Shown: positions 21,939 through 24,656 of the stretch, piece after piece
Numbering within the stretch: position 1 is the first letter of the stretch
Layout of the letters: every line of letters starts with the position of its first letter
From: Chrysomallon squamiferum
Lineage: Eukaryota; Animalia; Mollusca
NCBI GenBank assembly: GCA_012295275.1
Contig: CM022679.1
Location: 29,388,001-29,452,000 of the forward strand
Direction of reading: 5' to 3'
Length of the DNA: 64,000 nucleotides
Translations under genes and position numbers: made by a program
Notes under the pieces: generated by a model
Database searches by the model: none
What the model was told of the DNA's origin: nothing
Seen by the model: only the letters and a program-made list of their open reading frames with translations

Positions 21939-24656
21939 ATGTCGAGTCTAAGACTGCTACTACTGTTGTGTCTGTTGTTGACTGCTACAACACTAACTCA
22001 GGCAGATGGTACCTGCTACGACAACTGCGTGTAAGTAGTACACGGTGTTTTTTTCTTGTTGATGTCGTCGTTATCATGTACTAAAACATAAATACACCAT
22101 TTGAAAATATATGTATAAAAGTACACCTTGTATTTCATGTTGCGTGAAAGTATATCATGTACTTCGTATTAAATGAAGGTAAACCATACACTTCATATTA
22201 CATGAAGGCATACCATTATTCCATTTTACATGAAAATATACTTAATACTTCATATTACAATGAAAGTATACAATATTCTTCACAGTGTATGATTCCAGTT
22301 AATTGTAATGATCGTATTTGTGTTGCTGACAATGGTTTTCCTGTGTGAATATAACTCGCAGATTCACGACTATATAAATATGTCTCGATGTTGTTCTTGG
22401 AAAAGCACATAAAACGTCTACAAAATTGTAACAGTAGTAGTATCATCTCTAGTTGTAGTCTAATATTACAACTTCCGGTTTTCTGGTCTTTCCGGTACAG
22501 TAGTAGTAGTAGCAGTAAAATTATCATCATCATCATCATCATTATTATTATTATTATCATCGTCATTATCAGTATCATCATCATTATCATCGTTATTATC
22601 AGTATCATCAACATTATCATCGTTATTATTATTATTATTACTATTATTATTATTATTGTTGTTGTTGCTGTTGCTGTTGCTGTTATTATTATTGTTATTA
22701 TTATTATTATTATTATTGTTATTATTATTTCAGGAGAAAAAACTACCTACAAGCGTGAGTACTAGTTTTAAATTTGTGTAATTTTGAGTGATTTTTATCA
22801 CGTTTCCATTAGACAGCAGATCATACTCACTCTCTCTCTCTCTCTCTCTCTCTCTCTCTCTCTCTCTCTCTCTCTCTCTCTCTCTCTCTCTCTCTCTCTC
22901 TCTCTCTCTCTCTCTCTCTCTCTCTCTCTCTCTCTCTCTCTCTCTCTCTCTCATTACTGTATCATAATCTGTATATTATATATTTCAGTATTCCACAGTC
23001 AACTTATAACGGTTTTATCTATTACCTACTTTAATTTAAATATCATACTTAAAATATTACTCTTCTGTTCGATAAATTTCCGTATGTCTTTTTGTTATTA
23101 TAACATATTATACTTCAGTAACGATGTTTTTATTTATTGAAATTATTATTATTATTATTATTATTATTACTTTATTTATTTATTTATTTAATTATTTGTT
23201 TGTTTTACGTTAATCTGTCTTTTGTTTTACGTTAAACACTGAAAAATCGGGGTATTTTATTAATGTTTGTGAATTTTTCTCTTTTAATTTTTAAGTGGTG
23301 AATACCGTGCTGAGTAAGTATAAATTGTGTCCAGTGAATATTTGCTTTGGATATAAGTGAGTTTCAAACAGAGAGACTTACACACACAACACACACATAC
23401 ACACGAGGAGAGAGAGAGAGAGAGAGAGAGAGAGAGAGAGAGAGAGAGAGAGAGAGAGAGAGAGAGAGAGAGAGAGAGAGAGAGAGAGAGAGAGAGAGAG
23501 AGAGAGAGAGAGAGAGAGATTGTTGATTATTACAAGCAATTGTTAACAAGTGACCGCTTCAGCTGAATGAATATTTATAAATTAGTTATTGATTATTGGT
23601 GATGGTTACCATTAATATTCGATGCGATCGTAAATCCGAAAATAATATTGTTTTTCTTTCTTTCTTTCTTTCTTTGTTTTTTATTTTAATTACCTTGTGT
23701 AAATATGTGAAAAGAAAATGTTTTGGTAATAAAAATAAATTCTTCTTCTTCATATTATTATTATTTTTATTATTATTATTATTATTATTATTATTATTAT
23801 TATTATTATTATTATTGTTATTATTATTATTATTATTACTATCATTTAATTAGCTATTTCTATTTTTCTTTTGTTTGTATTTTTGATTTTGAGGGTCTCT
23901 GGGTTTTTATTAATTATATATATTTTTTTTTTATTAAGAATTGTTTAGTTATTATGATTAACAGCATTATTTGTCTGTGTTTGATTATCTATTTATTTAT
24001 TTATTTTAATAATTTAAATTTGATATTTTTAGGTTCCGTTACAAATGCCTGCGCCATTGTAGTGTAAGAAAAAATATTATTATTACTACTACAATTACTA
24101 CATATTTAATTACTGGATAACGATAATGACTGTAGAGTTAACGAACATTAAAACTGATTTTAGTGTCGCAAGTTCAATTATTAATAAAACAGTTTCCACG
24201 TTTTTCGAAAGATGACTTTTTGAGAAATCGCTGTCAGTTTGTTTTGGATATGAACCATAATAACTAACTAACTAACTAACTAACTAACTAACTAACTAAC
24301 TAACTAACTAACTAACTAATTAACTAACTAATTAGCTAACTAACTAACTAAATAAATAAATAAATGCAACAGAAAAGAAAAAATATAACGGTTTCCATCC
24401 AATTTTAAGTTCAAGATAAGAAAAAACGAAGAACAAAGTTACATACGGAGAGAGAAAAATTAACGTATTGTTTTGGACTTTATCAGTTGATTATTAACAA
24501 AGTTTAACTGTTACTAACGAAGCCCGTATATTAATGATATAAACTTTTCAAAATTAAATGTTATTACATATTTATGTGTTTTCTTGGAACATGTGTAGAC
24601 TTTAGTAAAAAAAAAATTAATTCATTTTTCAGACGAAAAGGGACGTGAATCAGTAG
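21939..24656 (+). CDS. Copy E precursor: [61 protein letters not shown]
   Basis: Exons 21939-22030, 22734-22754 (21 nt), 23296-23313 (18 nt), 24033-24063 (31 nt), 24633-24656; all GT-AG and in frame; AATAAA at ~24708. Confidence 0.85.

Follow-up and report, generated by a model that had tools for sequence, protein, structure and literature searches.

Micro-exon genes (MEGs) of Schistosoma are recognized by having about 80% of their coding region on symmetric exons of 6-36 bp (PMC5825161). The bicycle genes of aphids and their hemipteran kin carry ~5-25 micro-exons and encode proteins of ~200 residues (10.1101/2020.10.28.359562, 10.1101/2021.09.24.461719). On the side of the gene product, alpha-hairpinins, scorpion kappa-toxins and the peptides flf14/vil14a are described as two antiparallel helices joined by C1-C4 and C2-C3 bonds (PMC7191063). 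Here, we compare with these systems a cluster of small genes found in a 64-kb stretch of molluscan DNA (hereafter the window), for which an earlier note had proposed a MEG-like organization.

The likeness to Schistosoma MEGs is of particular interest, since both combine a signal peptide (a predicted one in the present genes), short symmetric exons and a mature part that evolves faster (PMC5825161, PMC4350168, PMC10526429). In the seven intact genes of the cluster, however, short symmetric exons make up 15-37% of the CDS, against the 80% or so that marks a MEG. The products have a fixed disulfide frame, unlike those of MEGs. MEGs are reported in the cited accounts from flatworms only, whereas the present genes lie in a mollusc, next to a BICC1 exon whose closest relative is a gastropod one. 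Splice variants have been confirmed in MEGs; in the family described here they are a prediction from the sequence. The cluster is not a MEG. We hold instead, with moderate confidence, that it encodes secreted helical hairpins with two disulfides, both micro-exons being mainly included and the second one skipped in a minor fraction of transcripts.

Layout of the eight-paralog cluster

Eight paralogs stand in tandem within the window, A-D on the minus strand and E-H on the plus strand (Table 1). The intact genes share one order of exons: a non-coding exon 1, an exon with the predicted signal sequence and the first C-X3-C pair, the micro-exons m1 and m2, a 31-nt exon with the second pair (the Cys exon) and a last exon that holds the stop codon and polyA signal and, in E, F and G, a KR site. 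There are 3-4 short internal exons per gene, the three introns that separate exon 2 from the Cys exon each have phase 2, and a TATA-like motif lies 5' of exon 1 in B, C, E, F, G, H and one remnant. The precursors measure 61-66 residues (82 in D), with a Leu-rich hydrophobic N-terminus in seven genes, where the signal peptide was judged by eye. The Cys exon runs from phase 2 to phase 0 over 31 nt, except in D (67 nt) and H (30 nt, phase 2 to 2). The H exon (38911-38940, plus strand), one base shorter, has become symmetric; the last exon of H is read in another frame and encodes a basic tail. In paralog A the signal exon is missing its 5' half and the donor of the Cys exon is not GT; this copy is likely a pseudogene.

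Table 1. Positions of the genes, exons and repeats within the window
Feature	Position	Strand	Details
Paralog A	270..3200	-	m1 2398-2378, m2 1396-1379; broken
Paralog B	4710..7424	-	m1 6403-6383, m2 5877-5860, Cys exon 5369-5339
Gene remnant	8854..9353	-	last intron and last exon only
Paralog C	10465..13873	-	m1 12501-12481, extra 21-nt exon 11827-11807, m2 11492-11475
Paralog C, donor-less 21-nt exon copy	12051-12031	-	third copy of the 21-nt exon
Inverted, isolated fragment of an m1-m2 intron	15772-16079	+	between C and D
Paralog D	16470..19200	-	m1 18282-18262, m2 17867-17853 (15 nt), Cys exon 17169-17103
Gene E, TATA box	21689..21696	+	motif
Gene E, exon 1, non-coding	21708..21770	+	donor at 21771; 5' end approximate
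Gene E, exon 2	21937..22030	+	ATG 21939, predicted signal peptide, first C-X3-C, phase 2 end
Gene E, micro-exon m1	22734..22754	+	21 nt, phase 2-2
Gene E, (CT)n tract	22830..22951	+	122 nt; 75 nt 3' of m1 donor; predicted 5' duplex arm
Gene E, micro-exon m2	23296..23313	+	18 nt, phase 2-2; AAG acceptor; Gly is the first full codon
Gene E, (GA)n tract	23408..23519	+	112 nt; 94 nt 3' of m2 donor; predicted 3' duplex arm
Gene E, Cys exon	24033..24063	+	31 nt, second C-X3-C, phase 2-0
Gene E, last exon	24633..24713	+	KR site, stop, AATAAA at 24708; 3' end approximate
Paralog F	27291..30388	+	m1 28612-28632, m2 29089-29106
Paralog G	31592..35149	+	m1 33377-33397, m2 33871-33888
Paralog H	36680..39464	+	m1 38097-38117, m2 38506-38523
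Two 5' remnants	40624..43113	+	promoter/exon 1 with signal-exon start; promoter/exon 1 with D-like signal fragment
BUB1/BUBR1-like N-terminal fragment	41690-41839	+	49 codons, ends in stop; between two peptide-gene remnants
BICC1 (Bicaudal-C), 3' part	about 52900-60000	-	with SAM-domain exons
26-bp minisatellite sites	12939-13641, 27469-27784, 31770-32381, 36910-37442, 40765-41272, 42663-42904		intron 1
Other minisatellites, well conserved	20159-20650; 57954-58597; 48424-48637		units of 71, 28/36 and 34 bp, respectively

Much of the layout given in the earlier note stands. The micro-exons measure 21+18 nt in A, B, E, F, G and H and 21+21+18 nt in C; they lie between the exons that carry the two C-X3-C pairs; the loop between the pairs has 18 residues in B and E-H and 25 in C; and most of it (13 of 18 loop codons) is on the micro-exons. 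Both micro-exons of gene E have phase 2 at either end, AG acceptors and GT[A/G]AGT donors. Paralog D, which had been credited with a single 15-nt micro-exon and a loop of 10 residues, turns out to have 21+15 nt and a loop of 17, a 21-nt exon at 18282-18262 (minus strand) having been missed. The donor side of this exon, GTNNGTATTAGTTT, has four matches in the window where 0.03 are expected, and all four are m1 donors (C, D, F and G). The second Cys pair is not on the terminal exon; it is on an internal exon, followed by a further last exon with the stop.

Several other features of the window deserve mention. In the paralogs, intron 1 holds a 26-bp minisatellite whose copy number ranges from ~2 in E to 27 in C. 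The best match of the BUB1-like fragment is a BUB1B-like sequence of Pecten maximus (65%), and it may be part of a gene that the cluster has captured. The exon of the adjoining BICC1 gene is 94% identical to that of Gigantopelta aegis, 78% to that of Haliotis and 75% to that of Octopus. These values point to a peltospirid or related vent snail and led us to reject a cephalopod, which had been considered first; the placement depends mainly on this one neighbouring exon, and the BUB1-like fragment is closest to a scallop.

It is improbable that part of the copy number is an artefact of the assembly, F and G being alleles and the donor-less exon copy in C being spurious. Such a view could account for the masked introns of F and G, which are 96-98% identical, and for a 300-nt block near A/B that recurs at 100%; the other pairs, however, reach only 76-93% in their introns (seven genes compared, D left out), and F differs from G in the length of its minisatellite and at six coding bases 5' of the last exon.

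Divergence of the micro-exons and exon gain

By their donors, their open frame and a divergence above that of the introns, both micro-exons are to be regarded as real. Donors stay close to the consensus throughout; the donor hexamer GT[A/G]AGT is present in 15 of the 16 m1 and m2 exons, and it is conserved though the micro-exons themselves are mostly 19-78% identical between paralogs (19-57% for m1, except in A/B and F/G at 95%; 28-78% for m2, except in F/G). Their frame is free of stops in all seven copies tested, G being omitted as near-identical to F, with a joint shuffle probability of 0.004 for copies that are not independent of one another. Over 24 non-Cys core codons in six copies (A and D left out), pN is 0.40-0.69 against an intron p of 0.14-0.17 in 14 of the 15 pairs (binomial p <= 1e-5), and the F and G cores differ by four non-synonymous and no synonymous changes (p 0.08). 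Mean pS is also high (0.35, against a pN of 0.53), in part from codons hit more than once, so that the size of the pN excess is approximate. Since selection acts only on translated exons, the accelerated amino-acid change argues that both micro-exons are translated. Both are likely included in the main transcript, at levels that we infer from the sequence.

The symmetric phase of these exons is one inherited event, not eight, and arithmetic gives two exons a prior of roughly 1 in 9 of both being multiples of 3. Because the second Cys pair must be kept, any change of length has to stay in frame. Symmetry that was inherited once, and that is needed in any case for the reading frame, permits skipping and is thus no evidence of it. 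The in-frame length changes seen are one exon gain (C) and one exon shortened by 3 nt (m2 of D); to this extent, as a single in-frame gain at the DNA level in C, the claim that exons can be added is borne out. The intron after m1 of C aligns with the m1-m2 intron of E, F and G as far as a TTA tract, and then runs into a second m1-type region of acceptor, exon and donor. The extra exon is nearest to C's own m1 (13/21, compared with 7-10/21; 26/30 in the flank). It would therefore seem to be a duplicated module, which unequal crossover between TTA tracts may have produced. A later duplication of ~257 bp in C gave the donor-less copy, where only one of the eight GT sites within 120 nt is in frame; as this one is weak, the copy was treated as a pseudo-exon.

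Further possibilities were considered. Mutually exclusive use of the two 21-nt exons of C is conceivable but without support, the extra exon being polar, with Pro, and more like an insert. Gene conversion between A and B might be read from their m1, shared at 20 of 21 positions, but their introns are uniformly about 90% identical and conversion is unneeded. For a putative swapping of exons between paralogs, trees were compared of introns 2 and 4 and of intron 5 together with the UTR, in the seven genes other than D; they disagree at a single fork, which has 88/91 support.

Taken together, we find it somewhat probable, on the evidence of the sequence, that gene duplication and diversifying selection account for most of the diversity of the family, to which in-frame exon gain has added. 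The earlier note had looked to splicing instead, with m1 and m2 skipped independently to yield up to four isoforms per gene, and eight for C. Its arithmetic is correct: every skip keeps the frame, and in the four genes tested (B, E, F and H) loops of 18, 12, 11 and 5 residues result with all frames open. These lengths are all inside the motif C-X3-C-X4-20-C-X3-C (PMC11591084), and the mature regions of MEGs are fast-evolving as well (PMC4350168). Nevertheless, we give the combinatorial proposal very little credence. A gene here has just two micro-exons, with a share of the CDS well below the MEG figure, no sequence feature favours the skipping of m1, and in-frame lengths are required anyway for the second Cys pair. 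Four to eight functional isoforms per gene are not supported; the sequence specifically predicts no more than one alternative form.

Complementary tracts around m2

The one alternative form predicted is that without m2. In seven of the eight genes, the m1 donor is followed at 45-83 nt by a (CT)n tract (78-177 nt) and the m2 donor at 24-98 nt by a (GA)n tract (88-112 nt), the two making up a CT/GA pair. The predicted duplex (-170 to -247 kcal/mol) encloses m2 in these seven genes, and in MFE folds m2 is enclosed by 103-163 pairs, compared with 54 in D, which has the GA tract only, its CT tract sitting in intron 1 and not before m2. Elsewhere in the window, between 39.5 and 64 kb on the plus strand, tracts of at least 30 nt comprise three CT and no GA, and thus no complementary pair. 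The m2 acceptor is AAG in seven of eight copies; m1 has a YAG acceptor in all eight and the donor GTGAGT in seven. AAG acceptors are weaker than YAG acceptors. A TGC motif of the eMIC type is absent from positions -25 to -4 of the checked acceptors in all eight genes.

Long complementary repeats predicted to pair are likewise described for the (AC)m-(GT)n introns of fish (PMC4691745) and for exons looped out in human (PMC10573301). In human, inclusion is lower for exons that paired regions loop out (PMC10573301), and in zebrafish complementary repeats across exons are largely avoided (PMC4691745). Unlike the fish (AC)m-(GT)n repeats, the CT/GA pair here spans an exon, and such an arrangement is described for fish as inhibitory and largely avoided (PMC4691745). 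A long (CU)n/(GA)n duplex in the pre-mRNA could loop m2 out in a fraction of transcripts, and the skip would yield one minor form with a 12-residue loop. The tract pair is predicted to raise the odds of this single alternative form, not of four to eight. From the modelled strength of the duplex, skipping might even dominate rather than be minor.

Could the duplex act as a switch between two states? In such a scheme m2 would be a cassette exon, peptides with loops of 18 and 12 residues would be made in comparable amounts, and C would lose its extra exon along with m2. The complementary tracts across the exon in seven of eight genes, each tract lying close to its intron's 5' end, the contrast with the 39.5-64 kb region, the enclosure of m2 compared with D and the AAG acceptor are all in keeping with this, as are the lower inclusion of looped-out exons in human and the avoidance of the arrangement in zebrafish. 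Furthermore, a 12-residue loop matches the 12-13 residues between C2 and C3 in solved alpha-hairpinins (PMC7191063). Even so, we consider such a switch unlikely. The tracts have a single ancestral source and microsatellites are self-sustaining, so that seven copies amount to about one event, and the observation of the tracts was post hoc. Moreover, D keeps the layout without the CT tract, an intron of BICC1 also has a GA tract just 3' of its donor, and m2 is strongly selected as coding sequence, while its skipping loses the central Gly of the peptide.

No better prospects can be given to the wider scenario in which (CT)n/(GA)n is retained as a switch in the RNA, giving a long and a short peptide per gene, with TTA-driven exon gain, a third origin of the architecture and possibly a part in symbiont management; this, too, we rate as unlikely. 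If true, it would represent a third independent origin of secreted effectors built from micro-exons, after schistosome MEGs and aphid bicycle genes. The cluster itself offers a natural comparison for the CT/GA question, with seven genes that have the pair and D that does not. For what follows we retain the reading in which m2 is mainly included and its skipping is minor.

The predicted peptide and its relation to known families

The encoded motif is C-X3-C-X17/18-C-X3-C, with a loop of 25 in C, and six of the seven intact genes (loop 17-18) have the pattern C-X3-C-X(4-20)-C-X3-C. Gly opens m2, as its first full codon, in seven of eight copies (C has Asp). It occupies core position 14, the midpoint between C2 (5) and C3 (24), in five of the six aligned copies, and the exon sequences of A and D show it as well. 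Taken at 100 degrees, arm 1 has an amphipathic pattern (shuffle p 0.026, five copies); for arm 2 the value is not significant (p 0.44, five copies). Signal cleavage and KR trimming would release a peptide of ~30-35 residues, longer in C and D, in which two helices would be stapled by C1-C4 and C2-C3 disulfides, with m1 lengthening the first helix and the turn placed at the initial Gly of m2. What had been called a loop is probably two helical arms around a central Gly and not a free loop. The central Gly is absent from the skipped forms in all four genes for which these were derived, and its loss on skipping favours full inclusion. The full form would then be the one under selection.

The cores are net positive in the six copies compared (K+R 5-8 against D+E 1-3), while D is strongly acidic. 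In this paralog a poly-Asp run follows the signal peptide and the core is acidic (18710-18852 and 17103-17169, minus strand), a charge opposite to that of the neighbouring paralogs. Both G. aegis and Chrysomallon host endosymbionts (PMC7895826). The predicted peptides are cationic, fast-evolving, clustered and secreted, which favours a role at the host-microbe interface, as cationic defence or symbiont-control peptides; we put this forward tentatively, at a little under even chances. The acidic D does not fit a cationic defence role. Rapid evolution and KR processing are also compatible with reproductive and signalling peptides. The same architecture might then serve as a pheromone, a seminal factor or a gamete-recognition signal or, in D, whose poly-Asp stretch would suit mineral binding, as a matrix peptide. 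We regard these roles as possible though doubtful, given the net positive charge of the six cores compared. In addition, short motifs of the family had no match in the supplements searched for two papers, PMC11871041 and PMC7142155, one of them a shell and sclerite proteome study; these files may be devoid of sequences. The sections of these two papers on novel and secreted genes do not mention such a family, and no paper in the literature searched, judged mostly by listing, evidently describes it.

Similarity searches were made with single short exons, and their results should be read at that scale. A search for protein homologs gave no candidate at 25-83 aa; Pfam returned none for five queries and PDB none (single exons of 22-48 residues, a weak test); and two JGI metagenome scans, again with single exons, had no matches. 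In the ESM Atlas the best score of a single-exon query was 0.79, to a plant thionin-like protein, below the level of a lead. Two weak matches in representative proteins covered 12-15 profile positions of repetitive proteins and were rejected.

The family resembles alpha-hairpinins and CS-alpha-alpha toxins in its C-X3-C-Xn-C-X3-C pattern, with n of 17-18 within their range of 4-20, and in being mostly cationic (PMC11591084, PMC7191063); kappa-hefutoxin, OmTx and the cone snail peptides flf14a-c and vil14a are the CS-alpha-alpha members to which it can be likened. In contrast, the 25-residue loop of C falls outside the 4-20 range, and searches with single exons found no sequence homology. The likeness is that of a Cys motif read from the genes; fold, connectivity and activity may carry over only by analogy.

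Aphid bicycle genes are alike in being secreted, in having paired Cys motifs, phase-2 micro-exons and paralog clusters, and in being under diversifying selection (10.1101/2020.10.28.359562, 10.1101/2021.09.24.461719). Internal micro-exons of bicycle genes are almost all phase 2, and in the present cluster phase 2 is likewise the starting phase of m1, m2 and the Cys exon. The term "alternative splic" does not occur in the main text of either bicycle paper (10.1101/2020.10.28.359562, 10.1101/2021.09.24.461719). Unlike bicycle genes, the genes described here have 2-3 micro-exons, encode 61-82 residues and come from a mollusc, and their C-X3-C pairs lie 17-25 residues apart. The widely spaced CYC pair of bicycle proteins and the C-[YF]-X2-C found here (six of six first motifs) share a surface likeness only. 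We infer convergence by analogy, and the cluster is not a member of the bicycle family.

There appears to be, then, a fast-evolving family of secreted peptides in symbiotic vent snails that had so far gone undescribed. Genes so small and fragmented are easily missed by annotation. They add a molluscan case to a recurring association, in which secreted proteins under positive selection are encoded with phase-2 micro-exons.
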